Below are positions 14,332 to 53,400 of a stretch of DNA of 64,000 nucleotides, piece by piece. Below the pieces are notes generated by a model. That model made no database searches, had not been told where the DNA came from, and worked only from the letters and a program-made list of their open reading frames with translations. This DNA comes from Vermamoeba vermiformis (taxonomy: Eukaryota): NCBI GenBank assembly GCA_045837725.1, contig JBEWZL010000166.1, forward strand, positions 1 through 64,000. Direction: 5' to 3'. Position numbers and translations under genes: made by a program. The number at the start of each line of letters is the position of its first letter. The stretch's first letter is position 1.

Positions 14332-16088
14332 ATGAAAACAAGGAAACGTAAGAGTAGAGGCGACGGCGAGGCAGAAGAGCAAGATAATATTAAGAATAAA
14401 CGTGCCAAAGTTGCGGATTCGGATGACCAACTGTCCGATCCAGAGCGTGAGGAAGCCAACAATGATAAACCTCCTACTGAACAATATACGGGCCAACGTA
14501 ACTCCAAGGGAGAATATCATGGACGAGGAACATTGCGGTAGAGTCGTTGATCTAATTAAAAAAATCAACAGAAAATTAACAAAAAATCCAAATTGATTTA
14601 GATACGTTGAAGATAACGTCACATACATTGGAAAGTTTGCCAATGGCGAAAAGTAAGTTAAACAAAATACGATAACAAAGATCCGGATCCTGATCGTCCA
14701 TTTTTTGCAAGGCACGGGCGAGGAGTAATGCACTTCGGTGAAGACGGAGATTTAATGCAAGGCACATGGGTTCATGACGAAATGGTTGGAAAAGGAGAGT
14801 ATATATTCGCAGATCAAAGTAAATTAGGTTTGTATTCCATACCTTGCTCGTAATCACCGCACAAATTTAATAATTCGCAATAATTTAGTTGGCACGTACG
14901 AGCATGGCGTACTTGAAGGCACAGTAGACGAGTACGACCCTGTTGGCAAGTTAACTTTCCACGGCGAGTACCAGAACGGAGTCCGACATGGTCCCGGCAC
15001 GATGTACTTTCCAGTAAGTATCACCAAATTATTATATGATACCATTAACGCTCGTTTCAGACATCAAATTAAATGACACGTGTCATTTTTGTTGCAATGC
15101 GAGGTGTAATGTTTTAACAATAATTTTGCTTCTAGGAAGGAACTCGAATTGAAGGCGAATGGGTTGAAGGTGTACTAGAAGGCACTAATGTGCGATATTA
15201 TTATCCTGATGAGAGCTACTTAGTCGGTGAATGGGAGGAAGGTGTCATGAAGAAGGCAGTCTTCAAGAGCTGTTTCGACAAAAAAGAACGGAAAGGTAGG
15301 GATTCAAGCCAACTTAAACACTCGGATTTTAATTAACACCGGGTCCTAGGAGTGTATTATAGTTACGATGAGTCCGACAAAAAACATCTATCAGCAGATC
15401 CGTTGTTGCCAGATCCGTTCGAACAACAGTATGTTTACGTAGCCACTTCCACACTACCAAACTCCGGTGAAGGTTTATTTGCTAAAAGAGACCTGCCTAA
15501 AGACGTACGTAAACTATCCAAAGAATATTATTAAAGCTAAGCTAATTGTGGTCAGTTTGTTTGCACGTTTTACAACGGGATCCGAGTTAGCCAAGAAAAG
15601 GTAAGCGACCTATAATAAGTGCTTTAAAATACATTTCAGAGCTAATAATAATATTTTCGTTCTTTTTAGGTCGATAGAAGACCTTGGAGTGAAAATAACA
15701 ACACGATTACAGTTGACGATTACGTGATAGATATTCCGCCACAATGGAGCAGCACGAAGAAATATTGCGCATCATTGGCTCATAAAGCAAATTGCAGTGA
15801 ACTTGCGCGAATTAATTCTAAATATGATTTGTTCTATAATCACCCCAGGTACGCTGTTACTCTTATGAAAAAAAAGAGGCAGCACTAATCTTATTTTTGC
15901 AGGTTCGGCAAAATTAAATGCATTAGAACATTGCGCGAGATTAAAAAAGACGAAGAAATATTTGTTGATTATGGTAAGACAGTGAGTATTCATTGGATCT
16001 GCGTTATTGACCGTTATTTCTCGTAGGATACAAGCCAGGTACTGGTCCTCAATGGTGGAGACAATTGCGTAATCAAGAAAAAAGTTAG
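14332..16088 (+). CDS. SETD7: SETD7 (SET7/9)-like lysine methyltransferase, MORN repeats plus SET domain
   Basis: N-terminal MORN repeats; DPLLPDPFEQQYVYVATS..GEGLFAK, FYNGIR, KYCASLAHKAN, HPRFGKIKCIRTLR..EEIFVDYGY, PQWW. Confidence 0.9.
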
Positions 16089-16222
16089 TGTAATTATGGA
16101 GAAATAATAATACGACGGTTCATTCATTCAAAAAATTGTTTTTTTTCATTTCTACAACAACATTTTCTGTAAGTAATCAATTCATGAATTATTATACCAT
16201 AGGCGGGCTTACAATTTAAGGT

Positions 16223-17939
16223 TTAGGGAAGTCCAGCCCAGCCAGTTTGAGCGTGCGTCAAGGTATCCCAAGCCATCATCAGATCCGTGTACTCAGGTCC
16301 TTTGTTGCGCAATCGAGTCACTACTGACGTTGTCTGCGGCAAAGAGTATCCGAGACGAGCAGAATAGTGATTATAAGCAATTTCCCAAGCTGGCAAGTCA
16401 CTCACACCGCGGATCTGGCCCAAGCAAAGGTAACTCTCAACGGTGGTGCTGTTCAAGTTCAAATAACGGCTGTTGAACTCGAGCGTCGCCAGAAAACGGT
16501 CTTTGCCTTCAGCGTAGAGATCGACGCCTTGTTGATACGCTGTCTCGGCAGTGTTGACCATGGCAGAGAGACCCATTTGCGTGTGACCCAAGTCACGGCA
16601 AGTCTCTTGGCACAGGCCGTTGAGTCTTGAATCGAAGACTGTCTGGTTCCAGTACGTGTAAAGGCTGTTGCCTGGTGGTACTGAAGGAGCGGATCCATCA
16701 CTGCTGGTGAGGTAAAAGTACCACGGCAGACGAGCACGCCAGATCTTGAGACCTTGTTCGAATGTCGTACGATTATCTGCGAAGATGCCAATATTCACCA
16801 GCGCGTCTGAGATTGACGCATCCCAGTTGCCATTGCTGTTCCAGCCGTTGTAGATGAGTGGTTGGATTAGATCTGGAAGACCAAGTAAGTTAACAATTAT
16901 TAGTCAGACTATCTTTTGACACGTGTTGAAGATATTTTTTTTGTGACACGTGTCAGAGTGTCAAAGTGTCGCGAAGAAACTTACTTGTTAACATATTTTG
17001 GAATCGTAAAGCATCAGCAGGAGCCCAGCCCGAATTAGTGTGTCGCAGAACTTCGGCTGATCTCGTGAACATTTCTCCGAGCCACGCTGCGTTGAGGAGG
17101 CCATTGCGCACTGAAATGTCCGATACCGAGAAAGGCACGCTTTGCAACGTGGACGACCATGCGTTCAAGATGTTGATCGCAGCCGTAGCGTAGGATTGAT
17201 TGCCAGTGTAGAGATAACGAAGAGTCAATGTCCAGGCCGCAAGAGCGTCAAGTCGTGAGCGAGAACAACCCACATCCGTTGCAGTAGGTTTTTCTTGGCC
17301 ACATTTGATTTCAACCACAGGACTGGCAGTGTAAGTCGCTTGTCCAATTTTCAGACCATTTCTCGATGTAACAGCAATTTTATCCATCTGTCGTTTCCAA
17401 GGCTGCAGACCGGCAGCAACTTTTGAGCGCACAAAGTCGATCTGGGCCTTGTTGATTAAAATGCCTGGATGAGCGAAGCCAGAAGCGACTTTAATCTCGT
17501 TAATGCTGCACCAAGTATTAACGGTGTTCCCTCTGAAGGTCAAGCGAACGTAACGAGCGGATGTGACTGGAACTTGGTAGATTTGAAGAGCGGTCGTTAA
17601 AGAGCTGTTGCCAGAGTAGATAAGAGTGAAGGTAGTGCCATCCAATGAAGTAGATAAGTCGAAGTAATTCACTCGGGTGTCTCCTTGGTACCAAGCAACG
17701 CTAACGCTGCAGATTTTGGTCAACTGTCCCAGATCGAGCATTATGAATACTCCTTCACCACTGGCCGACCAACGAGAAGTAATGTTTCCATCGATAGCTT
17801 GCGTAGGAGGGTTGCCTGTTTGAAAGGTGCTTGCGGTTACTGACTGAACAGCAACAGATCCAGAGCAAGCGAGTACGAGTGCTGGAACGAACCCAGCGAA
17901 GAAGAGAAATGCAAGAGCTGAGCGATGCATCATGTACAA
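16223..17939 (-). CDS. Secreted F5/8 type C (CBM32) plus alginate lyase-family protein, 2 exons
   Basis: Signal peptide; AIDGNITSRWS..ARYVRL discoidin domain; FAHPGI, NGNWDAS, GLCQETCRDLGH, WEIAYNHY, WDTLTH; intron about 16873-16984. Confidence 0.85.
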
Positions 17940-18645
17940 AGTGCTGCAGATGTGGTGTTAAGAAACATATGATTAACTGAATAATTGCTTTTATGCATGG
18001 CGCAGAATCTTATTCGACTTGCAAGAGAAATTTCACCGGATCAGCTGATCTTACTTTCCTAGCGCAACACGTTCCTTTCTTGATAATATAATGAATTGCC
18101 CTCTAATTAATTCGATTTGCGAATAGTACGCGTAGTCAAATTTGATTATGCCAGTAAATCCTTTCTTATGCGAATTGTTGTGTACTTTTTAAGCGGATTG
18201 TCAGTTACATCCTTAAAACGAAGAGATTTCGATTGAAAGATTGCTTTTGCGAAATAAGATAGCCAAGAACGAGAATGTAACTACTCAACTCTGCAAATCG
18301 TCACTCTTAAACTTTACTTGTTACTCTTTTTTTTTAAGCTACCCGACGACTCTCAAAAGGAATTACAATGACTCAGCTGTCACACTCGCTACCCAATATT
18401 TTTGTTTTCGCCGAGATACTATGGAAAATCAAGTGCTTATTACCTTACCCTCACGGGTACGTTGTCCGATTTTCCTTAATTTTCCTAACATTTTTCAGAT
18501 CGGTTTTTATATAAAAATTTTACAAATTACGAACACACCTAGCGTTCAAAATAGCTTAAGATGAATCTTGTATAAGGCCTTTATTAATGACGTCACAGAT
18601 AGTAGTGAGAGGAATTCCTAAGGGTTTCCTTAGCTCATACAAGAT

Positions 18646-21447: not shown

Positions 21448-22431
21448 TGTGGTTGCGGTGCCTACGAGGTGAACTACTAAGATAAAAAAACGATTTTTAA
21501 GTTAACTTTTTCAGTCGGCAATTTATACTAAATTGGAATTCCGACAGTAAATAAAAATGGAATCTCTTTGTGGTGAATGTAGGTAAAGTGGATAGACTGG
21601 TCTCGTACCTTGTAATAGGACCATCAGAGTCGTTGTCAGGGCTTCTACAAAAATGTACTCGTTGAATAATAATAATACGCTATTACAATAAGAATAGCTA
21701 TATTAACGAGTGTAATCATGACGGAATGCTGAGATTAAATGACGCACATTCAATAACTTAAAAACTCTAATTATCGAATTGCTCAGTACTTGCTGTCAGA
21801 TGGAGTACAAGGCGCTAGCGGCTAAAGTAAGTAGGTCATAACAACATACAATTTACTTTACGTAGTACAATCCAATAAATAAATTCGTTTTTTCTATTTT
21901 TTTTTTCGGTAAACGGATACGGTACCTAGATCTTACGGAAAACATAAATTTTATTAATTAATCGAGTTAAACTCTGCTAAGTTATGATTGCATGCAACGT
22001 ACTCAGCACTAGACGTGAGGTTGTAACTGAAAACCAAATTTGGATCTTCATTACGGGCCGCATAAAACTAAATCAATGTAAATTATATGACTTCTTACGT
22101 CAAGAGCTTATTATTATAATGGCACTATTTTACTCAATGTACATGCTTATCATCTAAGATAGGTTTGGCAGGAAAATCCAGATGGGGTCGGTGGCTGCCG
22201 AAGATAAAGTGAGAAGTACCGAATACGGCAAGTTCCGCAAAGATTCCTTGAATCATGAGTTTGATGCCATTTCTAGCAGGGCCACGTGAAATTAACGAAA
22301 AAAGAGGTTTTTCGACCAATCAAATCGGTTCAACCAGGGCGGATTCGTTTTTTTTGAAGCTTTAAATGGACCGGTCGTCTGCGGAGTTCTTTCTTCAAAC
22401 CAAAACTCAAACGCAACAACACAATACAACA

Positions 22432-22596
22432 ATGGAAGTCACTTTAGTCACTATCGACGGAAATGTCTACGCTCATGGTGGCACCAACACCGATGGTGTT
22501 CTCGGCACTGGCGAAAGATGCGTCTTCTGGATAAACGCTGGTCCTGTTCCTCAACCCGAGGCCGTCGACTTGTCTTACCTCTCGTTGAACCAGTAA
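22432..22596 (+). CDS. Short ORF resembling a single RCC1 repeat (fragment or microprotein)
   Basis: VTIDGNVYAHGGTNTDGVLGTG resembles the RCC1 repeat consensus; A/C-rich leader before the ATG. Confidence 0.4.
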   Translation: MEVTLVTIDGNVYAHGGTNTDGVLGTGERCVFWINAGPVPQPEAVDLSYLSLNQ

Positions 22597-23212
22597 CGAG
22601 CTCGAGTTCAAGCAATGAGAACAGCTCTTTCCTCATTGGAATTGGAATTGTAGTGGAATTGTAGTCTATAAATAAACAGTACTTTTGTACCACTATCGGC
22701 ATCTTTTTCCGTATAGTTCCAAAATGTCGGCGCATGTAAAGCATACCGTCTTCCATGGCTTCGCTACTAATAGGTCAAAATTAGCTGAAAGTTCGAGTTT
22801 GCCGTTAAATTTACCATTAATTAACGCAGATTGAAATTCGCATACAAAAAGTCGGACAGCATTCCATCATCTTGTTAAACACCGATTTTAGGGCTTACTC
22901 GCAGGAAGACCAGCACGGTAGTTAGCCAATATTTACACAATTTATGTACATCTGGTACAAATACGTATCGTCATTTAAGTACCACGTATTAGTTCGTTGA
23001 AATTACAATATGAAGCTGAGTGCTGTGCGTGCACAGTGCCTCCCATATCGCCCCAGTCTCCAACAGACCATCGCCACTCGCTGCTTTAACGATCTATTTT
23101 ATCCGAAATTCAATATCCAATCAACGACTTCATGCTGGCGATTTTTTATTTTTTTAATTTCTGGTGTATGTAATCGTTGATTCTTCCACTTAAGGCACTT
23201 TTAAACTATTAT

Positions 23213-24706: not shown

Positions 24707-25083
24707 AATGAGGTGTAATTAGCTCGTAAGATCTGATTTTGACAAGATGTGATCCTTTTGTCACGTCTCTGAATTACTCAGATTTTAAATAACATATATT
24801 GATGTGTTTGTGTTGCGCGTTGATGTAATTGATAAATAAATGGATAAATAATCTTTGTTTCAGGAGAAAAAATACGGTTTTGAATCGCACGTGCGATTTT
24901 TTCTCACTCTCGAAACTGTTTTAATGCCATCAAAGGGATGTATTGCGGGTCAAATTCAGTTAGTATGTACAATGGTGAACGAAGTACTGCCCGGACATAA
25001 GTATGACAGAGAACCGTTCAAAACCCAAAATAGAAAGAAACCGTCAAAACACTACATAATTTATCTGTGTCAATGACAGCGCT

Positions 25084-26613: not shown

Positions 26614-26667
<54 letters not shown>

Positions 26668-36600: not shown

Positions 36601-39600
36601 TTCACTGCGAAGTGCTGTCAAATCCGGAATTTTTCAAAACTGCCCAGCCGATCACAGCAGATATGATCATCAGGTTGAAAAGCAACATTAAAATGCCGGC
36701 ATTTGGTGACCGATCATTGGTCAAGAGATTATTGAAGTTGAAATCTCAGCAAGATTTTCCGCTGGAGAGAGTGGATCAGTTGAAATTTGAAGTGAAGTTA
36801 ATGAAAGAGTACTTTGGTGACACCAGTGCGGAAAAACTCAAAAGCAACATCCGCCTGATCAAACATTTGACGGACATTGGACGATTAGACGAAGCTTTGC
36901 AGTTGGTCAACGACAATTTGAAACAATTACCCGCAATGAATAGATGCAATGCGTTGTTGCCGACCCGATTGTATCTCCACTTAGCGGAGATACAGTTCAA
37001 GAAAGAGGACATGGTGAACGCCTTATTCAACATTTGCCGCGCACTGCGGTTAGTTTCACTGAGCATCAAAGTCACCATGAGCGGAGTGGACCACAATGCA
37101 TCAATGGACTTTTCGTTCCATCCAGTCTTCGTGGCTGTGCTCCATTACGTCATGTTCATCGCACATCAATCGGACACTCTTCCGCTGTTCTTGACCTGGC
37201 TGTACATAATGTACGGCGTTGAAAAAATGTTCCCGTTCCCTGGCTACGTCCCAAGACTTTCAGTAAGTCTTTCGCGTTGACCTGTACAAGCGGTCTAATT
37301 CTCTTTCTTAATTAGGACAATCTTCGGATATCCCGTGTCCCTCACACCAATTTCAGCGACTGAATTTGAAGGTGCAGAATTTATCTCCAGATTGGCGGCT
37401 AACTTCAAGTACGGCAGCCACAATACGACGGTGCAAAAATGGTACAAAAGAGGTACGACAAAGATTATAGGAAATTTCGTAGCTAACGTTTGTCGCAGTA
37501 TTTTCTATGAAGGATGGCATGGTATACGACGTTATACCGAATTTATACGACTTCGAGAATTTGCACGTGGACAAACTGTTTAGCAACGCCTCACAGCTCA
37601 CACGACAAATAATTCATCCTCAAGTCATTCAACGAGATCAGCCATTCGAAATCGTTGCAGTTATTCCGCCCGGTTGTGAAGGAACCAATCATTCGGTCGT
37701 GTTCTACAAAGATGCCTCGCTTTGGTGCGATAAGATGCAAAACTATCCCGAAATTTTCACAGTTCTGCTTGGCGGATTTGTTCGCCGCTGTACAATTGGA
37801 AAAGAATTCTGGGATAATTGTCCGTTGGATACCGAAAAGGTCGGAATTTCGCTACGATACACTGATTCATGGGGTGGCACTGGATACTTAGTTTCAGCCG
37901 AAATTTCAATTGGAAGACCAGGTACGCAAAATTTTCAGTTCATTTTATGTGGCTAATATTTGCATTTAGATTCGCTACAGGTGGCATATATTGGCGAAAA
38001 AGCTTGCACACCAGATGGTACCATTTATATTCAGCGACAGTAGTTAATAATTTTTTGTATTAATGGTTATTTTTTGTAGACTCGAGATCTCGCGAGAAGC
38101 CGTTCATTCAGTATCAACAGGCTGTGCGTGTTGTTTCGGATTGGAAAAACGAACGTGAAGCCCGTGTGGTTAGTGGATGGAGCAATTTTATGCGAACGAA
38201 GCACTATGTCATCACTGAAGATGTAAGAACTACATAACATATAATCAATATTGATTTTTTGTAACGAACCATTATAGTACAAAGTTTTGATGTTCGGAGA
38301 ACATGTTGAGTACTCGCCAAATGTCAACATGACCTCGGTGCCGAAACCACTTGAAGGATTTTTGGGCAAAGAGATTGTTCAAATTGTTGGCGGAAACACG
38401 TTTGGACCGTAAGCATGCAATGTAATTCTCAAAATTTAATTGACGCCCTCTTTTCTAGCGACAATATCAAACCTCCATTTTTCGCGGCAGTTTCAAAACG
38501 TGGCCTATTGTACACTTTCGTAAGGCTTATTGATAGTAATGCAATATATTTAGAGCGAAAATTAAATATTTCCTTTTTAGGGCAATAATCAAGACGGAGC
38601 GCTAGGGTTAGGGTTTGGCGGTGAATTAGAGCCTAATGCTCGTCTCGTGCAAGGCCTTTTGACAGTCAAAATTGCTCGCGTTGAAGGCGGCCACTCATTT
38701 GCAGTTGCGTTGTCACGTGACGGCAAAGCATTCATTTGGGGTCACTTAGGAGAACGAGAATTATCTTCGTACCCAAAGTTAATTCATTTCTCGGAAGGAA
38801 AAGGCGAGGATAAAATCAGAATCAGGCAAATTTCCGCCGCAGGAAGTCGGTGCACGTTTTTGACTGAACATGGCACGTTCTTCTTTTGCGGAGATTTGTA
38901 CCCAGCTCCGAAACGAAGCACTGATCCTACGAAATTTGTTTGGCTGAAAGAGTACAAACACGGCAACAAGAAGATCAAGCAAGTGCAGTGCGGAGTGATG
39001 CACACCGTGTTTGTCACTGAAGACGACGAGGTCTATTGTTTCGGAGACAATTCAGTGAACCAGTGCGTCACCGAAGTAAGTACCAATATTTCCAAATTAG
39101 GAAAAGTCATCAGTCATGCTCAACACTTTTTCTTGCAGGCATTGGAATGGCCAAGTGAAGATATGAAGCCGCTCAAGCTCATCTACGCGGGAAAAGAACG
39201 AAAATCCCAAGTGAAACAACTTGTCGGATTGAACTGCTGCACCGCCTTGTTGACGACTGATGGTCAGCGTAAGTGTCAAAAACATTTGACACGTGTCACT
39301 CAATCGTGTCAACTAAAAATTTTCACGCCAATTTTTGCTTCTCGATGGCTTTTATTGACTGTCCTTATTCTAGTATGGATGTGGGGTGGCAGTTCTGTGT
39401 ACCCGCGTTATCAACCAATCATGGACAATTATGGCAATCACATTCCTGTTGTGGCAATTGCCGCTGTAGGCCGAAACACTGTTGGAGTTTACTTCAAAAT
39501 GCCGTTCAGCACCAACTTGCCGATCGACCTGCCCATCATTCCTGAAGAACAAAAGTTCAGTCATTACGATGAAGATTTAGCGTTGCCTAACAACAGTAGA

Positions 39601-39762
39601 TCCGCCAGCCTTGCAAAGCGGAGTAATTTGACGACAGAAGAAATCGTTTCGTACCAGCAAGACGTGATTGAAGAGTTGAAAAAAGAAAATACGGAGTTAA
39701 AAGAGCGATTGCGCGTGGTTGAACAGTATTTCCAGGAAGTTACGCGGTACAAGAATCTCTGA
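33640..39762 (+). CDS. Large Clu-domain protein with N-terminal half-LIM finger, helical region, RCC1 repeats and C-terminal coiled coil
   Basis: CPLC..WYHKDC; GGIAGGQKY..FFK, LDYRGYRL, LVYGSGDAG, DIEVHKGNDG, LLRPELV, MHAHGINIRYLG; RCC1 repeats FGNNQDGALG, CGVMHTVFV..FGDN. Treating it as one gene is an inference. Confidence 0.75.
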
Positions 39763-39899
39763 TGTAATTGCATTCGGATAAATAAAATAATTCACTCGAT
39801 TAACCAGAAAAGAATAAGAACACCACAAATCCAAACACTAATTGGCGTAAGGACATAATTATAGCGAATTATTGTTGCGATAAATCTAACTGACTAATC

Positions 39900-42158
39900 A
39901 TGGATCCATCGCACAGAGTCTTTGCAAGATTTTCCAGATCAACGCAACCAATGGAAGATTTATTGCCAGAAATAACATTAAAAATATTTTATTATATTCC
40001 ATTTCGTCTTAGTCTAAGGACAGTCGCGTTAGTTAGCAAGAAATGGCTCGATCTGCTCAAAATTACCAAAAATTCGAATTTAATGACAGTTGACCTCAGA
40101 AATACCAATTATTCATTTTATCAATATAAAATAATAGCAGCAAAATATAATATTGAACAATTGGTCATTTCACATCTGGGAGATTCGCTTTTTCCTTTAG
40201 CAGCACTTATCAACGCTTCGCCAGCACTCAATACGCTAGCAATTGGCAGATCAACAAACGGTGGATTATTTGAAAACATTATGTGCCAAGGAAGAACCAT
40301 TCCAAAAATTTTCTTAGTGTTGGAGCAGATGCGATCAAAATTATCCTTCAGCAAAATTAGACGACTAGAGATCCCTTCTCACTTGCTTTCAATATTACGT
40401 ATATTTCCCAACGTACGACAGCTCAAATTTGACATGCTAGAGTCTCTTTTTTCGGAGGACGATGACACGTGTCAAAACCAAAACTTAGGACCATTTGAAA
40501 GCGTCAAAGAAATTGACACGCGAGTATACGAATACGAAGAAGTAGACTTCAAGCATTTGAAAACAATATTTCCTAATTTGGAAACGTTGCATTTAAGTAC
40601 TAATGACAGCGAAGAGATTGAAAATAAGTGCAAAGGCATAGTGACAGTACATTGCAAAAATATCAGTCTGTTTCCGAGGACACTGAATCAGCAATTCAGT
40701 GAACGAAGTTATGCGGAATATTTTTTCAGAAATGGAGAAACTCCGTTCGTCTCTTTGTTTAAGAGCCGAGGGCCCTCAGCTTCAGACGTCGAAGAATTTT
40801 TGCAAAGACATTCGTTTTTGACAGCAGAGTACGAATCAGATTTTTCAGCACGTGACAGAGAAGTAGTTTTTCCGTCGGAAAGCGAACTTTATGACGTCAC
40901 TCAAGTGACGCCACCATTACTACAAAATCTCCCAGCGGAGATACAAGCCGTATTACACAAGCACAATATTATTCCACCAGCATTGCTCAAAGAACGACCC
41001 AAACCTGCAAATGATTTAATGAAACTAGGAAGCATACAACCTCCGACCGAAGAATTCAATCCGATACTGCAATGGCATGCCAAAATTAGCAATAATAATA
41101 ATCCTCCAACGGACGAGGACGATGAAGCGGAAAAATTTTGGAAGAAACTTGCGGCATTATCGAATTCACTCGTCATAAGTGATATTTTGGGCCACGTGAC
41201 AGAGCTTAAAAACTGGCCAATTAGAAACTATTCGGACCTGCAAATATTTGCAAAGTTTCTGTATCCAATGTCAATGGTGGAGCCTTTATTTGAAGAAGTT
41301 TATTCCGTCATCGGCAAAGAAACATTAGCAAAGTTAATTAATACACGAATGTCTGGTGTAACGGTCATTCATTACTTTGTAGTGCGTGGACTGAATGTAG
41401 AGTGGGATTTGATAGCTGATTTAGTTGATTGGAGCATCGAAGATGACGATGGACGTAATGCCGCAACATTGGCATTCTTGGTTGGAGAACACGGATTATG
41501 TCAGAAATTTCTACAATTTGGTGTGAAACTGCAAATAGAACATATACTTTCATCGTCATACTTGCAATATTATAAGTGTGGCTATGATACGATGGATTCT
41601 GAAGCAGTAGTCAGCGATGCGGATCTCAAAAGATGGGTCTTCTCGTACACAATCAAAGAAAAGAATTCAGAGAAAATTAACAAAAGCATTGACTACATAA
41701 TCAATCGATTGAAATTAACGGAGCAAGATATTCTGACAATAATGAACTGTCACGTGACTGCAGCAGGTCAGTTGGCGTTAGTTTTGCATCTGAAACATCA
41801 CCACGAACTAGACCTTAACAAGCGTGATAATAATAATGAAACAACGCTGCAAGTAGCAATTAATTCGAAGAATTTCAGCGCAGTCAATTTTGCGCTAACT
41901 TACGGAGCTGATCCAAATCTGGAGATCGCAGATGGAATGTCCCCATTAGTTTATCTTTGCAATACGCCATTTAATAGTGACCAAGACATGATATTCTTTC
42001 ATCTAACAATGGATGCGTTGGTTGCACTAGGCGCTGATATTCAAAAAGTCTATCAGAATCAGCATGGCGAGAAATTGAACCTGATAGAAGTCGCGCAGCG
42101 AGCGGGCAATCCAATTGAATCAATAGTGCATTATATTAACAAATCAATGAAGAAGTAG
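39900..42158 (+). CDS. Intronless F-box, LRR-like and ankyrin repeat protein
   Basis: LLPEITLKIFYYI..VALVSKKW (F-box); FPNVRQL and FPNLETLHL; DDDGRNA, NETTLQVAI..YGADPN, LGADI (ankyrin). Start may be the ATG at 39951. Confidence 0.85.
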   Translation: MDPSHRVFARFSRSTQPMEDLLPEITLKIFYYIPFRLSLRTVALVSKKWLDLLKITKNSNLMTVDLRNTNYSFYQYKIIAAKYNIEQLVISHLGDSLFPLAALINASPALNTLAIGRSTNGGLFENIMCQGRTIPKIFLVLEQMRSKLSFSKIRRLEIPSHLLSILRIFPNVRQLKFDMLESLFSEDDDTCQNQNLGPFESVKEIDTRVYEYEEVDFKHLKTIFPNLETLHLSTNDSEEIENKCKGIVTVHCKNISLFPRTLNQQFSERSYAEYFFRNGETPFVSLFKSRGPSASDVEEFLQRHSFLTAEYESDFSARDREVVFPSESELYDVTQVTPPLLQNLPAEIQAVLHKHNIIPPALLKERPKPANDLMKLGSIQPPTEEFNPILQWHAKISNNNNPPTDEDDEAEKFWKKLAALSNSLVISDILGHVTELKNWPIRNYSDLQIFAKFLYPMSMVEPLFEEVYSVIGKETLAKLINTRMSGVTVIHYFVVRGLNVEWDLIADLVDWSIEDDDGRNAATLAFLVGEHGLCQKFLQFGVKLQIEHILSSSYLQYYKCGYDTMDSEAVVSDADLKRWVFSYTIKEKNSEKINKSIDYIINRLKLTEQDILTIMNCHVTAAGQLALVLHLKHHHELDLNKRDNNNETTLQVAINSKNFSAVNFALTYGADPNLEIADGMSPLVYLCNTPFNSDQDMIFFHLTMDALVALGADIQKVYQNQHGEKLNLIEVAQRAGNPIESIVHYINKSMKK

Positions 42159-42475
42159 ATGGCAAGAGGTAATTAATTTTATTGCCATTTTATTACCGCC
42201 AAAATCGCTTATCATTATTTTCGATAGCCCAGAAATGGCATTACTACCGTTACGACACTCCGCCGACGACAGGGAGGCTTTTGAAATTCCTGATAACGGC
42301 TCACCCAGTATTAAAATATGAAACCTTGGATAATAAAAGATTTTCATTTGCTTTTCTTTGGATTTTTTGACTGCCGAGGAAGCAGATGGACACAACAGAA
42401 GACAGGTGTTAAAAAAATAATACTCCGTTGTGAAATACTTACAGCAGTGCCCAGGATAAACAAAGAGCAACTAGG

Positions 42476-45400
42476 ATGGAGGCATCCACGAGGTTAAGCC
42501 TCATCTGCCTTTTAATACTAGCTCTTGGTGGTGCTATTCAATCCAAGTATGTAATTAATGTTTAATAATATTTTTATATTATATGCTTTGAAGAGTTTTA
42601 AATGCGCTTGTGGTCTGATCTTATTTATTGGCAGAGCAGAAATAATTTTGGAAAATTCCAACGCTCGATTTACCTTCGACGAGAATGATTTTGGACTTGT
42701 TGCACTCGAATTTAAACAAAATGGGCAGTATTTTAATTTTTTGAACGATTCTTCGTCTCAACCAATTTGGGCGCTTCACTTTCGGGACGAGCAAGGCGTT
42801 GAATATGTAATAACCAATGATTTTGTTAATAATTAATTCATTATAATCTATTTATTAGGTTGTTGATGGCTCAGATACGACAGAACAGCGGATGTACGAA
42901 ATCCAAACCCGCAACTCGACATCATCTTTATATTTAAATTGGATAAACACACGTACGTATACTATCATATTAAAAAAAGTTCTATATATCAAATTGACAC
43001 TATTTAAAGAGATTCCCGATGTTAACTTGCCGGTGAATGTCTCGGTCGAGATCCAATTACTTCCTGTTGGCTTAATTGAGAGCAAAATAACTATAGTACG
43101 TATTTAAAAATTCCTAGGTATAAGTTTTTTCTTAATATTCGAGTATAGGGAGCTGTTGGTGGAGAATTGGCCTTAAACCATTATTTCTTTTTCATCGTTA
43201 CAAATATCGGAACCAAAAATTCTTCGCAAGACACTGCTATTGTTCCTGGAGGTAATACCATATATAGTATAATTATTTAGTTTTAGGATGCTAATTTTTT
43301 GATAGAACTTGGATTCAAGAATCAAGATCCGAAAGGCTTTTGGTGGTCAGCACGATACCCTTCAGGACCAGCTTCAATGCCTTTTATGTTGTTCCATCAT
43401 AAGATTAATAGCACAGTCGATCATATTAATGTCAATTGCTCACGTGGTCTTGGACTGTTCTACGCGGCTCTCGAACCACATCCATCACAAAAAGACTTCA
43501 ACATTTACCCGACCTCGCTAGGTAATATTATTATAGTATTTAATTAATTCTATTATAATATTTTTCATATGATTAGGCTTGCAAATGAGCGTACGACAAT
43601 ATCCTGAAAATAATATTTTGCCGCACAACAAAAAGATAGAGTCGCAAGTGAGATTTGTCATAGGTAATCATATAATAATAATTAATATCGTTATTTTTAT
43701 AATATTTAATATGATTTGTTAATTAGGACCTTATTGTGGAGACTGGTGGGATGGTGCGCAGATCTATCGAAGTTGGGGTATAAAAAACGCTCCGTGGACA
43801 AGGTACGTGACTCGCAAATGACATTTTGTATAGAAGCCATCGGATATAGTATAGGACAATAGGAAATAGTTAATATTGATTATTTAGTGCTGGTCCGATC
43901 AAGTACCGAAGTGACATCCCGCAGTGGTACAAAGATACGACACTGTGGATTAATTCCCATTGGATTCCCGGAAATTTAAACAATTCACTAGGTAATTAAT
44001 TAACCTACTATATTTATTATGACGTTCAGTCCGGAGAACAAAAGTTGTATATCCGATCTTCGACATCCGATCTAGTGTTCAACTTAGCTCATATTTTTGT
44101 TAATGATAGGGCTATATTAATGTTGTATTATTTATAGGCAATCCTAATATTATCGAAGCAAATGTAAACAAATTTATTGACGCGATCAGCCCGTCAAAGT
44201 ATTTCAACGCATCCACTGTGGCATTTCATTGGTACGTCTGGCATCAAGTGGCATGGCAAACAAATTACCCCCACTATTTTCCCGCAAAAGATGGGTTCAG
44301 AGAAGTCACGCAAAAATTGCAACAACAAGGTACATCCGGATCGCAAAAATTCAATTTTTTTCCTAATAATATTTTAGGCATTAAAGTGTTTCCATATATT
44401 AACGGTCGTGTATATGACATTAATAACCAATCGTGGAGTCATGACGAAGCCGAGAGCCACTGCTGCAAAATGAGTGCGGCAAGATCCAAGCCGTTACGCG
44501 TCCCTGTACAGCTCGAATCATATTCTAATAATCAATATTGGGCCATTATGTGTCCTTCAACACCTTTTTGGCAAGACAAGCTCACGTAAGTAATCACGTC
44601 TAATTAACGGAGAAAATAATTATCCAACCACATCCAGCTCTCTGACCGTTGGCCTAACTAATGACTATAAGACGAATGGTGTATATATCGATCAAGTAAG
44701 CCCTTACTATTATAGTAAATGTCAAAAAAAATTAACATTTGATGCAATAGTTGGCGTCAAAAGATCCAGTACTTTGTTTCGATCCGCACCACAATCACCC
44801 GCAAGGCGGTGGATCATACTGGGTAAGTATAGCAATAATATAATTAGATATTGCGCATTTATTAATTACTATTGATACTACACTACAGACGGACGGATAC
44901 AACAGAGCCCTGAAGAGAATCAGATCCGCCATGTCCAAGACAGCCGTGTTGACTTCAGAATCAAATGCTGAAGTGTATATGAAGTATATTGATGGATTCT
45001 TAGTCATTGGTGGCTATCATAATTGTCCTATGGTACGCAACCTGTAATATACCCTTTTTTAGTTTCGGCCGGATCCAGCCAGAACTGAACGGTGCTTTTA
45101 CCTTTTAATTCTCAGAATTTTAATTGATATGTTTAACTTCGCTTTTTAGATCCCATTGTTCCAAGCAGTCTATTCAGACTACGCTATCACCTTCGGCAGA
45201 TATTTTCAGGCCAGCAACTCCAAGACTCAATTCACCCAGATGATGGCACAAGTAAGGTTAAATATTATATATATAATAGTATTATTACAGTATTCGTTTA
45301 ACGTGAAAAAAATCGTGAAAATTTTAAGGTGGATCTTGCGAAGGCTAATTTTTATTTTGCACAGATGTTTGTCTACGGATCTCAGACTTGGATGGTTTGC

Positions 45401-45950
45401 GCTTGACGGCAGCGATGGATTATTACCATTTTTGGCAAATGAGACGAACTTCAAGTACATGGATTACGTGTCAAACTTGACGCGGTTCAGAACACTAGGC
45501 GCGGAGTATCTTTTGTACGGACGATTGATGCGACCATTAGATACTACACCCCAAGACATTGGTATTATAGACAAGCATTGTTTTGCAAAAATTGCAATTG
45601 CTGTTTGGCGATCTCAAGGCGGAGATCTAGGTAAGTCACATCCAATAATTCCGCCGGACACCTAAAATTCATTTAAACACCTCAATATTGCTCAAAATAT
45701 TATGTTATTATACTTATAACTTATTTTAGCCATATTCGCGGTCAATGGAAGAACTTCTGTCGAAAATTTTGAGTGGACGATGGATGTGGTACAAGATTAC
45801 GGCTTAGACAGAGCTAGGAGCTACATATTGCAAGAAATTCATATTGATGGTACTAGTAGCGTCATTGGACAGTTTAGTTCATCACAAGTGAGCGGATCCA
45901 TTCAAATCGCCCCTATGCAGATCCGATTTTATCGAATATTACCAAATTAG
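42476..45950 (+). CDS. Secreted DUF6259-like putative glycoside hydrolase, many exons
   Basis: Signal peptide; GDWWDGAQIYRSW, HWYVWHQ..YPHYFPAKDGF, PYINGR, MCPST.FWQ, GVYIDQ, HNHPQGGGSYW, ESNAE, PLFQAVYSDY. Confidence 0.75.
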
Positions 45951-46045
45951 GGCAACAAATAGAATATAAACAATGACAAGTAAGCAAAAAATTATCCATA
46001 TTTTGTTCAATCAACGAGAAATTGTAGTTAATTCGCAATTTATTA

Positions 46046-47791
46046 TTACTTTGTACATTTTTCGACGAGCAGATCTGCATGCTCAGGCTTAATTCCAGTT
46101 ATCGCGTAACTATTGTTCGCGTTATTTCTAATTTGTTCTTGGAATTGTGTTAATAATTTACCAGCCCAGGTGTCTTGTCCCCAAGAAAGTGTCTTGTACA
46201 TGTTATGGAAATGGTACGCATAAGCGCCGTCCCAAAATTTAAATTCTCCGTTAACTTTGCTAAATAAGTACGCGAATCTACAGTAATAATAATAATCGTT
46301 AATTATGAGACAGACGTTTATAAAAAAAATGCGAAATTTTAAAATTGAGATCTGCATCCGGTAAGAAAACGTTAAAAAATGTTGTATATTTAAATTACGT
46401 ACCTATCATAAGGCAAGTTATTCTTGGCGCTAGCTTTTTCAACGATGTTCCAAACTGGATCGAAGTAAGCAGCTGGATAAAGAACCACAGGCAGATCCTG
46501 CTCGATGATAATTTCGTATAATTTCCACGGATGAAAATTGTTTTTTCTGCCAATAATGCGCTGAAACATTGTTTTAACGGATTTGCCGCCTCGTTGCAAC
46601 GAAAATACTGCCGTGTTCATCTTGCCCGCTTGCGCAGCCCACAAGTACGCAAATTCATTTTGCTAATATAAACCGTACGTTAGTATTTATCAACCACTGT
46701 ATTTTCCAGTCAAAATTTTGGGATCCAAAAAAACAGATCCGGATTTCGCAATGTTTGAGTATGAAAGTGCAATGCTTGCGTCGAATAAATCAAAGGGGAA
46801 TTCGTAATGAGTATGAGCGTTAGATATGAGCACATAGCTTACCATAAAAGTGTGCATTGGTCGCAAGAAAATGACATCCACATCCACGTACATTCCGCCG
46901 TACTTGTACAATATTAACATGCGCACTAAATCACCCCACAACGCTCCTTTAGCATCTAACAGACCAATCACATCCTGTTTTTGCTTCTCGTCAGTAATTT
47001 TTGACAGATCCAATGGCGTGTCCTGACAAAAAAATTAACCGTTAAAAGCAATTATTAATGAAAATCAATTCGGTGGAATTAATTATAGAATTATTGAGCA
47101 ATGTAACTAACTAACATAGACGTACCTTTGCGAGATCAGACAAATTGAAACATTTGAAATAAATATTCGGATGATCCGTAAACGGAGCCAACATTGGATT
47201 CGACGTAAAATTTTCATATTGTCGTGCTTCTAGCCAATAAATCAATACGGATTTGTTCAAGTCTTGCGTGGCCAAGTACGAGTAAAGCAAGAACTGATGA
47301 ACAGGTACCATTTCGCCGGTCCAAGCAGTATGAAATACGGTCAATTCGTCGCTAATATTTCTAATTTGCATTGGCTCATGATTTCGAAGAAAATTTAAGC
47401 ACTTGGTAGTGTCGTTGTTGGGACAATCTATCAACAGGTCAGATGAGTGTCCAAAAGGTGTCATTAGCATATCTTCCCAAGGATTAAGTGGTGTATTAAT
47501 TGGTGCATTTTCGGACGAATTGTTAACCGGATTCAGTACTTGTTGCAACGAATCCTCTTCAGGATCCAACCAAAACCTTGAAAAAATAAATAAGTATTTA
47601 CTTGTCCGTATTTCGGAACGTTAAATAACATTCTTAATGATAGAATCATTAAATACACTGGTCTTATAAGATGTCATTAACTCCGGATCGACATCCTACC
47701 TAGATGAGTTCGTTCGTACGAGCACAATAGCTAGGAAAACAAGCATAACAATGAGGGCACCGCGCAGTGCAGTTGCTCGCGTTGGCCTCAT
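46046..47791 (-). CDS. GT32 (DXD, OCH1/Gb3 synthase-like) glycosyltransferase, paralog 1
   Basis: Type II membrane anchor; DLVRMLILYKYGGMYVDVDVIFLRP; AYAYHFHN. Confidence 0.88.
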
Positions 47792-48191
47792 ATTGCGTCG
47801 TGCTGACAACAACTGAAACAGAATAAAACAAGAAATTGCTGTTGGTTCACAACCCATGAAATCACTACTGGTCTCAAAGTGCCGAGAACCTCGATCGTTC
47901 AGATACAATTTATTATTATAGATTGCCAGGATTGCAAGCATTACGTTGCGGTCAAAATATTCCCATGACATTTCAGATCCAAGATCTGAAAGCGGATCAA
48001 TTATTCAACAAGCTATTAACAACTTGAAGCGTTTGTAGCAATAGTTATTCAAGTACACCTCTATTTCATAATAATCCCTCGCGTGATAAGTGTTTCAAAA
48101 GTGTCATTTGTCCATCTAGATGTAGCTCGGCGACCACTTCATTTGATCAAATTTGTCTCCGTACGGTCGAAATATGCTACATGTTGTTTAT

Positions 48192-50044
48192 TTATTTACA
48201 TTCGCTGATGAGCAATTCATCGTTCTCTTTTCGCCAGAACTTGATCTGGTTTTTCCTCGGCATCCGCATGAATTTATCTTTCCATTTTCGCTCTACGACG
48301 CCAGCCCAACTATCAGCGGTCCAATTTGTAGCTTCGTACATATTATGGAAATGATTGGCGTACGCGCCACCCCAGAACGAGGTCCTGGTTAAATTCGCTT
48401 GGTTGAATAGCCCAGGAAACCTGTAAATAAGCATTAATATTGTCATTCGAATGATATACACATAATTTTATATTATAATAATCAATAGGACGCCTAGAAA
48501 TTTTTGAATGAAATTTCGTTCGTAGATGTGCTGATCCAGATCGTTGAAATAATGATTTAAATACGTACTTTGCGTAAGGATTATCATCCAGCGGACTAAA
48601 TCTGTCGGAAATAGCCCACACCGGGTCAAAAAACGTTGATGGATAAATAATCAAGGGCAATGTTCTATTCATGACGGCTTCCATCAACTTGTGCGGATGA
48701 AAATTATCCTTCTTTTGCGTGACAATGTAGTCGAATAGTTCGTTAATTACGTGACCACGTGCTTTTAAGCCTAACACCGCTGTGTTCAGACTGGCAAAAG
48801 CCTGACCACGTGTAGGCGAATTCATTGGCCTGAGGTGAGTAATTAGAATCGGTAAATACACTGTAAATGCACCGTAAATACTATAAAAAAATGCCTGAAG
48901 AGGAAATTTAGACGACTAATTTGTTAATTCAAGAAAATTACAGTTGTTCTTTTTTTGCGCAAAAAAATAAAATTTTAAATATGACCATGCAATGTCATAT
49001 TGGATACCTGATGTTGTATTGCAATAATATAGTATACGGTATATAAGTTTATCAATTTCAGAAACTTACCATTAATGGCTCGAAAGATCTGAGAAACATC
49101 ACATCCACGTCAACATAAATTCCTCCATATTTGTACAAAATAAGCATGCGGAACAAGTCACCAGACAATGGTCCATATAATACATTAAGCAGCTTCATAA
49201 TATGGTCCTTGTTTGTCTCCATGGTCGATAGCTGGATCCAGCGGTGTTCCCTACATTGCCAAAATATTAGTCTTATTCTAATACTATAGTCTATTATATT
49301 ATTATAATTATACTCACACTGGCAAGATCAGTGATATTATAGCACTTAAATACGATGTTTGAGTGTTTTAAAAATGGCGCCAAAAGTGAGCTGTTCATCG
49401 AGCTGGCGAAAGTCGCTTGATCGATCCAATAAATTAAAATTGTGCGAGATAAATTCTGCGTGGCTACAAATGAGTATAATAAGAACTGATGCATCGGAGA
49501 AATTTTGCCTCGCCACGCTGTGTGAATGATCAACGTTTCGTTATCGTTTAGTAGTCTCCTTGGCGGTGTTTGTCGTAAAAATTGAAGGCACTTGGTAACA
49601 TTACTAATTGGGCAATTTTTTTGGACTTCTTCGATGGTGCCGTACGGCGTGATTAGCGGATCTTCGCCAGTCAAATATTCTACAACAATTTCTGGAGAGA
49701 TATCAAGGTCAGCATCGTCATCTACAATATTAGCCGCCTCATCCGTCCATCCATTGGAGCTAAGATAATAAAATCAGCTTTTAATTATTATTAATTGCAT
49801 TTTGATAAACGATCGGATTCATTTATTATCGAAATTAAAAGGAAAAAAAGATCAATTCCGACTTCTAGCAAAGTATACGTGTAATTTATGATAATGAAAT
49901 TTGGTTTTTTAATTATTACCTGAGTAGTTGTGGATTCAAGCGAATAAAAAGAACAAATAAGAATACGACTCCAACAACAATGACAACCCGAAGCAAGCTT
50001 AGTCTTAATATCAGGTTACTAATAGGACATTTGCTTTCTTCCAT
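48192..50044 (-). CDS. GT32 glycosyltransferase, paralog 2 (apparent +1 frameshift at 48796-48799)
   Basis: DLFRMLILYKYGGIYVDVDVMFLRS; AYANHFHN; same exon layout as paralog 1. Confidence 0.85.
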
Positions 50045-50496
50045 TGACGACACAGTAAAATAATAACGCCATTCGCCAATTTCTGAAACGCCAAAAAAGC
50101 GAAATCTCCACAATTACGTTGCATTTCTATGAGAATCATAATTAATGTCGGTGATCATAGCGAGTAGAGCCCGCTTGGTTGCAGTTTAATTCCAGCAGAC
50201 TAGTTGCGTATTTGTCACTTGCCAAAAAAGCGAATCCGTCGGAACAAAGAGGTAGTTCTATTTAAAATTTAATTGGAGTGCTATACTGTGCAATAAGAGG
50301 CACAACAACTTTACTATATGACTACGGAGAGACGGCTACTATTAACCTGACTTTACTAGAGTTGGATCCACCAGTCATCCTCGGATCAAGCCCAGCGAGC
50401 CTCCGTCGTAGTTGACCTACTCTTAAAAAAATACCTTTACTAATTAATTAAAAGTAACTAATTATTACTTCAGTGGCTAGTATTTGCGTACAATGT

Positions 50497-53400
50497 TTAT
50501 TTTTTGTCCGCGTGCTGATCCGAGCCAATTGAAAAATTAGCGGGGATGTTGAACGAGACTATTTTAACAGTCTCATTAAGAAGTCCAATAATCATATAGT
50601 CTTCTTTGACTATGAGTGTCTTTGGTGCAGTTTTCAGCGGAATTGTGTAGACTGGCGGTGACTTGGGTGGTTTTCTCACGTCGTACACTTCAATGGCACA
50701 TTTGCTGCCTTGAAGGCCTGCAAACACAAAGTCGCCTTTTGACGCCACGCATGTGTACTAACAATGCAATATTAGCATAAAGAGCGACAGGAAATATCTT
50801 CTTTAAGTTTAAAGCTGTCAAAATATATTATGACACGTGTCGTGAAAAAATGAGTGTCACGTGTCATTTTGCGATCATCAAATGTATAGTAAAGATGAAG
50901 TAAAATGTAGTTTTGTTTGGATGGAGTGAAGAAAATGAAATTTCATTTTTTTTTGCAAATTTAGATTTGACGTACCTGCCAGACGCCACGTTCCCATTTT
51001 GTCGGTAAAGCTTTGTAATCTTGTTCTGACAGGCGCAAGACCAACTCGCCCGTGCTTAATTTGGACACGAATAATTCCGCACATGCAACGGATATAATAC
51101 GATCATTTTCCTCGTCAATAATCAAATGACTGACTGCCGTGCTTGAATGTGATTTGTGCTGCGAATAAATTGACGCGTACGTGCTCCTGTTGAAACACTC
51201 GAAGCCGTGCGCACATGCGTTGATAATGAAATTCTTGCTCAGCCATATTTTGCCAGGCCTCGATTGATCTATTCAATAGTTTAGGTTAGCCACTACATTA
51301 TTTCGAGCTGTGAAAAATATAATGTCACTGGGGTGTTTGACTTTGACGCGTGAAAAATTGGTTTTGATGACACGTGTCAAACACTGACCCGTACAGCCGA
51401 ACGCTAAGCTGTAACATAATGTAGACTCTTTGTTGGGAAATTAAGTTGACACGTGTCATCGACTGTCATCTTGACACTTACGTTCGCTTTGGCTGATTGG
51501 CGTGAAAGTATTCAAGTTCCAAAATCTGACGCACTTCTCGCCCACTGTGATCGTAATTGCCACGTCATCAGTCAAACTCAACGAAGCAGGCTCGCCTGTT
51601 CCATGAAAAGTCCATAGCCGTTCATTTGTGGCCCACTTGGCCCACACATAATCATTCGTTTCAGTGAAAAGAATGTACTGGCCGTTGACGTGGAAACCTG
51701 TGAAAAAATTAGTTTGACACGTGTCAAAAAGAGATAGTTTGACGCCTACCAGCGTGCATGTTTTTCTTTGTTAGTTCGAGTTCAATATCAGTCTCGTAAT
51801 TATATACTGCTAATAGTCCTTCATTTCGGTTGTAAATGATTGATTTTTCAGCTGCGCAAAGGTAGATTTGCTTAATCTGTCTACTAACGATCGGAAGTTG
51901 TTCCTTATACGGTATAATCTGCGAAAATAATAATTTTAATTTGTTGTATGCAAAAGCAAATTGCCAAATTAGGAAATGAATAATATTACCTTGACAACAG
52001 AGTTCGAGGCCGTGTTGATAAAAACAATATTTCCAGAGTAAGTTCCAACGACTAGTAACTCGTATTCTGGATCAAAATCCATGCACGTGACGCCAAGTAT
52101 GTTCGTGCTAGAATAATATGCATCGGGCTTTTCTTCCGTAATTTTGAGTTGAATTGTGTTGACCACGAAATTTCCTAAAATAGTAAATGAATCGGATTAG
52201 TGGCAGCAAGGTTAAAACATCAAAAAAGATGACACGTGTCAAATACGGTAGTAGCTAGTGATTGACACGCGAAAAAATTGGTGCTGTCAAGTGACACGTG
52301 TCAAATCGAAAGCGTCAAAGTACCTTTAGTCATATTCAGTTCTCCAGCTCTCTTCAAAATAAGTTCTTTTTTGATATTATTAGCTCCAGACTCTCTGCCG
52401 TAAATTTTCATGAAAAGTTGGCGCCAAATCATCGGATGTTCGCTCCATTTTTTGAATTGTCTGCAAACCATTGAAAATGCGATCAAATCTTCAATACTAT
52501 TCTCTAATAATATTCCGCTGATAGTCTCTTGCGCTAACGATAAGAATAACGATTCTTGGCCCGTGTCGAAATTATAGCCTGCGACACATCCGCTGGTTTA
52601 AATTCATATCCCCGCTTCAGCGACACTAAAAATCGAAGTAAATACATCAATAACGTGACTTGCCTAAAAAGGAAATAATAATACTTACGTAAGATGGACG
52701 GATGCAATTTTTTGTAATCGAACACGGAAATTCCGGTTTTAGCCGCGCCCATAATATCTCCTTCGAGCAACTTTGCAATGCCCTATAACACCAACATTAA
52801 TCTTTGCAAGAATTTTTTCTGGTGACTTACTTCGTTGCCGTTATTTTTCGCTACATCGATCGGAGTCTCGCCTTCAATGTTAACCGCTTTTTGCAAGTCT
52901 CGGATCGTTTTTGCATTTACTATTGAAAATGTGTCAATATTGATAATTTCTTTCCATATTAGGCAAATTTTTGGTTTAATCTTACCGTGCTCAGGTCCGA
53001 TGAGCAATTTCAGAATTAACTCCGGATGGCACTTTGCTCGACACAAAATATGCAGCACATTGTCGCCTGATAAATCTTCAACGGTCAAATCGATAGTAGG
53101 CACTCGGCACTATGACAATACAACATGTTAATTTATGAAGATAATCTACGAGAAAGAAAAAGGATCGAAGAAGTGATCCGGATCTTTGAAAAATTACCGT
53201 TGACAGAATTTAGAATACTCCCTTATTTGGTAATTTCATTTATGTGTAGTTAAAGGATTGTATGGGACACTTACCAGGGCGCGAATAACGGACAAATTTT
53301 CACTTTTGACAGCGATCATGATCGGAGTTCTACCGTGTTCAATGTCCGTTAAATTGACATCAGCGCCGTGTCGCAACATCAACTCCACGATTGACGTGTA

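Follow-up and report, generated by a model that had tools for sequence, protein, structure and literature searches.

A sharp 12-bp palindrome near the 5′ splice sites of a minority of introns in a 64-kb eukaryotic window

We examined a 64-kb stretch of DNA (positions 1–64,000 of contig JBEWZL010000166.1, Vermamoeba vermiformis; hereafter the window) that carries nine exact copies of TGACACGTGTCA, a perfect 12-bp palindrome with CACGTG at its centre. The window is a compact eukaryotic stretch of ~40% G+C, and together with five short metagenome contigs it forms the evidence base of this work. Genes were modelled with our own splice-aware finder, using codon log-odds from long open frames and splice matrices from a first pass. 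The finder predicted ~160 introns with GTAAGT or GTACGT donors, a modal length of ~53 nt and branch sites of the (G/T)CTAAC or CTAAT type 10–20 nt ahead of the 3′ splice site, and split the window into ~60% exons, ~26% introns and ~14% neither. Since the models fuse some adjacent genes and miss a Ras-like gene near 9–13 kb, the intergenic share is a lower bound. Seven of 11 GT..AG or CT..AC joints in RNA-type contigs of a close relative agree with the models at both ends (36476/36530 and 39075/39139 among them), and the remaining four differ at one end. Over 35001–55000, RNA-type contigs of another organism cover most exons at 95%–99% identity, and three RNA-seq runs bearing the same species label as the best DNA matches gave seven to nine reads each, all partial; the label of these raw-read runs may not fit the window genome. 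No tRNA was found in the window, and Rfam gave no match at the gathering score across its whole length and none at E up to 1 over 50700–52400.

All nine exact copies and all three near copies listed by an earlier, sequence-only reading were recovered (Table 1). That reading had put the chance expectation far below one per window, which is borne out by an expected count of 0.003 and by the absence of exact copies from all 100 dinucleotide-preserving shuffles of the window. The motif is sharp: sites with zero, one, two and three mismatches numbered 9, 2, 3 and 27, against 0.003, 0.11, 1.95 and 20.4 expected. There was thus no excess of variants at two or three mismatches in the window and no halo of decayed copies, and two two-mismatch sites beyond those in Table 1 (54924 and 59095) are chance-like. 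The most over-represented 8-mers and 10-mers of the window are words out of the core. When 22 copies (12 from the window, 10 from the metagenome) were aligned on the core in the sense orientation, they had nothing in common beyond a weak TT before it and an A after it. As far as sequence can tell, the mismatch spectrum and the unconserved flanks indicate that the 12-mer is under selection and is not what remains of a decaying longer repeat.

The sequence-only reading had assigned all copies but 40463 to introns of four genes. Of the 12 copies and near copies, 11 do fall in seven introns of four genes; the remaining one is exonic, which leaves none outside genes. The grounds for calling these introns differ by site: an RNA joint for 39269–39373, a protein alignment for 16873–16984, coherent flanking exons for 15014–15135, and the splice-aware gene finder only for the four in the gene at 50497–54117. 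The gene around 15014–15135 has a predicted product with MORN-like repeats (MORN/SET7-like), and the exon directly after the intron gave a sub-threshold SET7_N match (E 0.0012). Intron 39269–39373 lies in an RCC1-repeat gene (38581–39762, plus strand) and is supported by a GT..AG joint at 39268/39374 in an RNA-type contig of the close relative. It contains the half-site GTGTCAA at 39273–39279, CGTGTCAA at 39305 and the T-run motif AAAAATTTTCACG at ~39315–39327. The open frame of this gene runs unbroken through both of its introns (63 and 105 nt, stop-free multiples of three), and an intron-blind caller would therefore give a 393-residue protein with 56 intron-derived residues.

The third gene (16223–17946, minus strand) encodes a secreted protein with F5/8-type-C and alginate-lyase-like parts and a signal peptide starting at ~17946. 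Intron 16873–16984 is its sole intron, and the junction (...MLT^N...) is fixed by alignment with the continuous homologues P0008, P0009 and P0010. A 10-bp terminal inverted repeat (CAAGTAAGTT/AACTTACTTG) places GTAAGT on both strands of this intron. The nearest full-length continuous homologues, P0008 (55% identity) and P0009 (52%), have lipobox or lipoprotein-like signal peptides. These N-termini, the sole pointer of this kind, make the gene a candidate for transfer from bacteria; because P0008 and P0009 look bacterial, the motif intron may have been gained after the transfer. Relatives of the gene occur in two EukProt transcriptome entries (P0006 and P0010), and NCBIfam bacterial family models gave no significant match to the lyase-like gene or to the DUF6259 and GH16 genes.

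The fourth gene (50497–54117, minus strand), of ankyrin/F-box type, carries five cores and the near copies 50831 and 50855 in four consecutive introns. The two cores of intron 51269–51481 form a 15-bp perfect inverted pair, and a T-run motif lies at 51349–51361. The 52-nt intron 51698–51749 holds almost nothing besides the motif and its satellites, and its T-run is the actual 3′ end (ACTAATTTTTTCACAG). In intron 52175–52323, TTGACGC (52312–52318) adjoins the 5′ splice site and TTGACACGCGAAAAAATTGG lies at 52262–52281. An RNA-contig joint at 51387/51714 (CC..GT) was rejected as a splice; the contig comes from elsewhere and matches two copies of the core.

The single exonic copy, at 40463, is placed in an exon by the open frame and by a continuous RNA contig (40402–41006). 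It sits in a variable linker and lacks conservation, as P0003, a homologue with 46% identity, has a five-residue gap at that place. The half-sites beside it encode residues that are conserved in P0003 (FESVKEIDTRVYEY).

The copies are tied to the 5′ splice site. In the seven window introns the first copy starts 18, 20, 23, 23, 29, 60 and ~108 nt past it. Five metagenome introns, described below, have offsets of 23, 29, 56, 22 and 22 nt. Taking the two sets together, nine of 12 motif introns have a copy starting at 18–29 nt (2.2 expected; simulated P ∼5 × 10^−5 under random placement respecting intron length and copy number), and six have one at 20–23 nt (0.8 expected). The half-sites claimed earlier as extra features of these introns are likewise concentrated there, with TTGACRC outside cores at 6.2 per kb in motif introns versus 0.32 per kb in other predicted introns. 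A half-site starts at +3 to +8 in five of the seven window motif introns and in none of 153 others. The splice-site-proximal forms are GTAA-GTGTCAA (twice), GTAG-GCGTCAA, GTA-CGTCAA and GTAC-TTTGACGC. Two introns of different genes, at 39269 (plus strand) and 51481 (minus strand), do share the start GTAAGTGTCAA, as noted before.

Other parts recur with less regularity. A T-run ending in CAC(G), of the form (C)CAATTTTTTCACG, often lies 3′ of the core on the sense strand, and two or three units are present in the longer motif introns. Lengths of 52, 105, 112, 122, 149, 213 and 218 nt put most motif introns above the mode of 53 nt. Some flanking words are shared beyond the core: AAGATATTTTTTT follows it at 16929 in the window and in metagenome locus L002, GAAAGCGTCAAAG occurs at 40501 and 52308 (near cores 40463 and 52292), and 51349 and 52268 have CCAATTTTT(T)C-CG-GTCAA in common. 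A possible source of the 13-mer common to 40501 and 52308 would be paralogy of the two F-box/ankyrin genes, but tblastn detected none. The predicted folds of motif introns are more stable than those of other introns (mean z −1.69 versus +0.23; Mann–Whitney P 2 × 10^−5), and the predicted stems pair the core with the splice-site-proximal half-site or with a second copy. We rejected the core as a branch site; every motif intron has an ordinary CTAAC- or CTAAT-type branch site nearer its 3′ end.

Table 1. Copies of the palindrome, the introns and exon that hold them, and other listed sites and contigs
Feature	Position or contigs	Strand	Details
Exact copies of TGACACGTGTCA	15074, 16944, 39287, 40463, 51368, 51447, 51715, 52230, 52292		
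Near copies of TGACACGTGTCA	16917, 50831, 50855		2 mismatches, 1 mismatch and 1 mismatch, respectively
Intron, 122 nt	15014..15135	+	exact core 15074-15085, 60 nt past 5′ splice site
Intron, 112 nt	16873..16984	-	exact core 16944-16955, 29 nt past 5′ splice site; near copy 16917-16928
Intron, 105 nt	39269..39373	+	RCC1-repeat gene; exact core 39287-39298, 18 nt past 5′ splice site
Exonic copy	40463..40474	+	read D-T-C-Q in F-box/ankyrin open reading frame 39894-42158
Intron, 218 nt	50758..50975	-	ankyrin/F-box gene; one-mismatch copies 50831 and 50855 with CGTGAAAAAATGAG between; CGTCAA (50967-50972) adjoins 5′ splice site
Intron, 213 nt	51269..51481	-	starts GTAAGTGTCAA; exact cores 51447 (23 nt past 5′ splice site) and 51368
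Intron, 52 nt	51698..51749	-	GTAG, GCGTCAA, 9 nt, TTGACACGTGTCAA, then ACTAATTTTTTCACAG; core 51715
Intron, 149 nt	52175..52323	-	two module units; exact cores 52292 (20 nt past 5′ splice site) and 52230
CAGATCCG/CGGATCTG sites, examples	15395, 15410, 16280, 19467, 35073, 44921, 57714		
Metagenome contigs of apparent paired-operator type	L001, L005-L007, L010, L013, L019, L020, L026, L036, L037, L045, L049, L065, L067, L088, L090, L093, L095, L096, L099-L101		

Intron-blind gene callers read an exon on into the intron that follows, so their products expose intron sequence, and we used this principle to look for the motif in relatives. Read in this way, the window exon of the lyase-like gene continues as SKFLRDTLTL until the core's TGA stops it, and a strain with 97% identity (P0005) behaves alike. 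A product of another organism (P0007; 63% identity, contigs up to 531 kb) ends ...RFQNMLT-GKLDLFDTCQF. Here GK is compatible with G|GTAAG, and the core read in frame 2 gives DTCQ, the same reading as at the exonic copy 40463; the remainder differs from the window. DTCQ could come from other codons too; judged from this peptide, the core most probably sits ~16 nt inside the orthologous intron of P0007, with diverged surroundings. The sequence-only reading had held that an old intron position with similarity limited to the 12-mer would refute a mobile intron, and this is the picture that the P0007 peptide suggests for one intron. A weaker hint of retention comes from P0022 (64% identity over the covered part), the sole informative relative in a search of representatives with the RCC1 open frame. 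Its frame begins inside the orthologous intron and shows only the 3′ part, where it shares K-I-F with the window reading of AAAATTTTC. The sharpness of the motif, its apparent retention in an orthologous intron and the lack of decayed copies together argue for selection on the 12-mer.

A metagenome scan for two cores 40–70 nt apart returned 101 very mixed loci, none overlapping the window. About six of them seem to come from a eukaryote of this kind, and five (L038, L012, L002, L050 and L057) resemble the window, with 34%–41% G+C, short GTAAGT introns and the core pair in a probable intron; for L050 and L057 the donor sites were placed by inspection alone. In L038 the motif intron interrupts a Rad3/XPD-type helicase gene and is proven by the continuity of the Pfam profile Helicase_C_2 across it (profile positions 61–103 and then 106–169 on either side).

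The same 12-mer also turned up in quite different settings. A tailed-phage contig of 31,704 bases (L105/G001; L122, L123), with portal, terminase gpA, capsid E, baseplate J and P2-type tail genes, holds 18 exact copies, each extended to (T)TTGACACGTGTCAAA. Nearly all are found in the short stretches that separate co-directional genes, in many cases ~16 nt ahead of a start codon. The arrangement suggests a genome-wide operator or “stoperator”-like system and is unrelated to the eukaryotic introns. Viral scans returned a phage plus chance matches. More than 20 similar metagenome contigs of 45%–60% G+C have two 12-mers ~52 nt apart around two inward-facing cTTGACAa boxes, a layout that, by its sequence, looks like a divergent promoter between two operators. 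Eight AT-rich contigs (L009, L022, L066, L068, L024, L046, L034 and L077; 26%–33% G+C, up to 75 kb) carry the 12-mer and GCCACGTGGC-type palindromes within longer inverted repeats that have A/T runs on their flanks; these belong to another repeat family, in other organisms. Within the window itself, another enriched word is the 8-mer CAGATCCG/CGGATCTG (15 occurrences on both strands against ∼1.1 expected, 13 of them in predicted exons), and the related GATC-containing words GATCCAGA, CGGATCGA and GATCCGGA are enriched too.

The account we tentatively favour, as a possibility still short of an even chance, is that TGACACGTGTCA is a cis element under selection, belongs to a special class of introns and acts on the pre-mRNA near the 5′ splice site. 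It would form the core of a cis-acting module that marks a minority of spliceosomal introns (seven of the ∼160 predicted in the window). In this module a half-site (GYGTCAA or TTGACRC) would adjoin GTAA or GTAC and the full palindrome would follow ∼20 nt in, often with a T-run ending in CAC(G); longer introns would have two or three such units. Because the core is self-complementary, a half-site or a second copy can pair with it. Such pairing would put the first 30–90 nt of the intron into a stem that takes in positions +5 to +12 of the 5′ splice site, and either the stem itself or a dimeric factor reading the core would set the splicing efficiency of the intron group. Our observations comprise the motif's confinement to introns, its set distance from the splice site, its sharpness and its potential to pair; action at the RNA level, any trans factor and any effect on splicing are inferred. 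Two copies, moreover, lie in the 3′ halves of convergent genes. The sequence-only reading had offered a choice between a protein-binding element and the relic of an intron-generating element; the evidence shifts that choice towards a functional intronic element, probably acting at the level of RNA or splicing, as the best fit.

Several points weigh against this account. Classically, a palindrome in DNA marks the binding of a dimeric protein to DNA and not a signal in RNA. The half-site variants do not speak for RNA pairing: on the sense strand GCGUCAA is no rarer than UUGACGC, although its pairing with the core is worse. One copy is exonic. The offset windows were picked after the data had been seen, four of the seven window motif introns come from one gene, and the five metagenome loci were chosen for their paired copies. 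The extra fold stability is a trivial consequence of the inverted repeats and so lends no independent support. On the donor and acceptor matrices the seven motif introns scored no lower than 151 others (donor 6.2 versus 5.3, not significant). A loop-out between paired copies that would restore an effective length of 53 nt was rejected, the computed lengths ranging from 47 to 182 nt.

A rather doubtful alternative, which still has several observations behind it, is that an ancient introner-like cassette, a unit of ∼52–60 nt, spread into genes and created the motif introns. Besides the palindrome, the cassette would have supplied the intron's 5′ splice site and a branch-site-like CTAAT or CCAAT with a T-run and CAG behind it; longer introns would stem from tandem units, and the core alone would have stayed intact because the propagation machinery or the host now needs it. 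The 52-nt intron 51698–51749 is almost wholly one such unit and ends with ACTAATTTTTTCACAG, longer introns have two or three units with sub-motifs in the same order, and some flanks are common beyond the core (the AAGATATTTTTTT, GAAAGCGTCAAAG and CCAATTTTT pairs), those of AAGATATTTTTTT and GAAAGCGTCAAAG beyond chance. The sole intron of the lyase-like gene is a motif intron, apparently gained after transfer if the gene's continuous homologues are as bacterial as they look, and its 10-bp terminal inverted repeat puts GTAAGT on both strands. Proliferating symmetrical introns that lack target duplications are, moreover, described for Hypoxylaceae (PMC8469720). On the other side, target duplications were seen by inspection at none of the seven motif-intron junctions, and an inverted-repeat scan found terminal repeats in one of seven introns (16873–16984), so they are not consistent. 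The motif introns have no end-to-end similarity to one another, sharing the 12-mer and short sub-motifs at variable spacing only. The sole testable intron position is common to the 63%-identical P0007 and is thus probably not recent, and the half-sites near the exonic copy, whose encoded residues are conserved in P0003, are not an insert. A DUF6259 gene in the window has ∼15 ordinary introns and no motif, and lipobox-like N-termini are all that marks the lyase gene as bacterial. Shared flanks and a presumably post-transfer intron keep an old cassette origin alive and lend no support to recent mobility. The relic proposed in the sequence-only reading is weakened by the missing halo of decayed copies, the lack of consistent terminal repeats and of target duplications and the P0007 peptide, and survives as a possible ancient cassette.

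It is unlikely that TGACACGTGTCA is a DNA-level site for a homodimeric factor of the basic helix-loop-helix leucine zipper (bHLH-ZIP) or basic leucine zipper (bZIP) type, an extended E-box/G-box with half-sites adding cooperative binding. Copies would then be intronic because the genome has almost no other free non-coding DNA. CACGTG, the E-box/G-box, is bound by bHLH-ZIP and bZIP dimers, and the perfect 12-bp palindrome with this centre, the symmetrical behaviour of half-site variants and the exonic copy are all as such a site would have them. Two of the four window loci lie 0.7–2.3 kb upstream of the start of the next gene, and the same 12-mer is operator-like in the phage contig (18 copies) and in bacterial-looking metagenome contigs. 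Yet no copy occurs in the at least 14% of the window outside predicted genes, and two convergent genes hold 15074 and 16944 in their 3′ halves, away from promoters. For the set distance from the 5′ splice site, as for the abutting half-site, there is no DNA-level reason, and real factor sites usually have many weaker variants, of which we see no excess at two or three mismatches. The G-box likeness noted earlier thus holds for the palindrome and its CACGTG centre; its reading as a transcription-factor site is weakened by the lack of intergenic copies and by the set splice-site distance.

We also entertain, as an improbable idea, a self-propagating mini-intron of ∼52 nt that would seed spliceosomal introns and leave neither terminal repeats nor target duplications, for example via the spliceosome. 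It would consist of a 5′ splice site, a half-site, the 12-nt palindrome, a branch-site-like CTAAT, a T-run and CAG, with the palindrome serving both as a handle for propagation and as a splicing signal on which the host depends. This double role would explain how the palindrome stayed perfect for so long amid drifting surroundings. Neutral debris, a remnant of a miniature inverted-repeat transposable element (MITE) or foldback element that landed anywhere and survived only in introns, being tolerated neither in exons nor in short intergenic regions, could account for the mostly above-modal lengths and the several copies per intron, but is highly improbable given the lack of decayed copies, terminal repeats and duplications, the ties to the 5′ splice site, the core-compatible read-through peptide in a distant relative's orthologous intron and a 52-nt intron that leaves no room for an older host intron.

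We compared the motif introns with known systems. In Saccharomyces cerevisiae, the Mer1 enhancer AYACCCUY lies in unrelated meiotic introns, no more than 25 nt from the 5′ splice site (PMC3082912). The likeness to the Mer1/Nam8 meiotic splicing regulon is thus a short fixed sequence at most ∼25 nt past the 5′ splice site, shared by introns whose genes are functionally unrelated; the enhancer marks its introns as one co-regulated set, which offers the closest analogy for the motif introns. The Mer1 site is 8 nt long and non-palindromic, is known in four introns and goes with non-consensus 5′ splice sites. In contrast, the window motif is a 12-nt perfect palindrome with satellite half-sites, occurs in ∼4% of predicted introns and accompanies splice sites that are not weak. 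Introners, according to Gozashti et al. 2022 (PMC9860276), are recognised by whole intron-end similarity, and many families, though not all, have target duplications or terminal repeats. The motif introns resemble them in sharing sequence across unrelated genes, in including the sole intron of a probably transferred gene and in one nearly symmetrical member with a 5′ splice site on both strands. They differ in that similarity is limited to 12 nt plus short sub-motifs, duplications are found in none of seven and terminal repeats in one of seven, and the testable position appears old. The Hypoxylaceae sister (stw)introns (PMC8469720) are internally symmetrical with 45–55-nt terminal inverted repeats and striking overall similarity. 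An internal symmetry able to form double-stranded RNA and seamless integration that leaves no flanking duplications are what they have in common with our introns. Here, by contrast, the symmetry amounts to a 12-nt core and 6–8-nt half-sites, and copies are otherwise dissimilar. The E-box/G-box shares the CACGTG centre and the twofold symmetry, but the window motif is tied to 5′ splice sites, has no intergenic copies and lacks weaker variants. Unlike a MITE or foldback remnant, it has no consistent terminal repeats, flanking duplications or decayed copies. Full-text literature matches to the 12-mer and to its central 10-mer were primer lists and plant work on the G-box or the abscisic acid-responsive element (ABRE); as far as their titles and the beginnings of their abstracts indicate, they describe no such intronic element.

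To our knowledge, few sequence-specific intronic signals other than the core splice signals are common to many unrelated genes. Those described so far, of which the Mer1 enhancer is one, concern just a few introns. Should ∼4% of introns indeed carry one invariant 12-mer at a fixed spacing from the 5′ splice site, many genes would be under one splicing factor or one RNA fold. Alternatively, the motif may be a well-preserved trace of intron making. Because the element is short, exact and easily mutated, both possibilities are directly testable.

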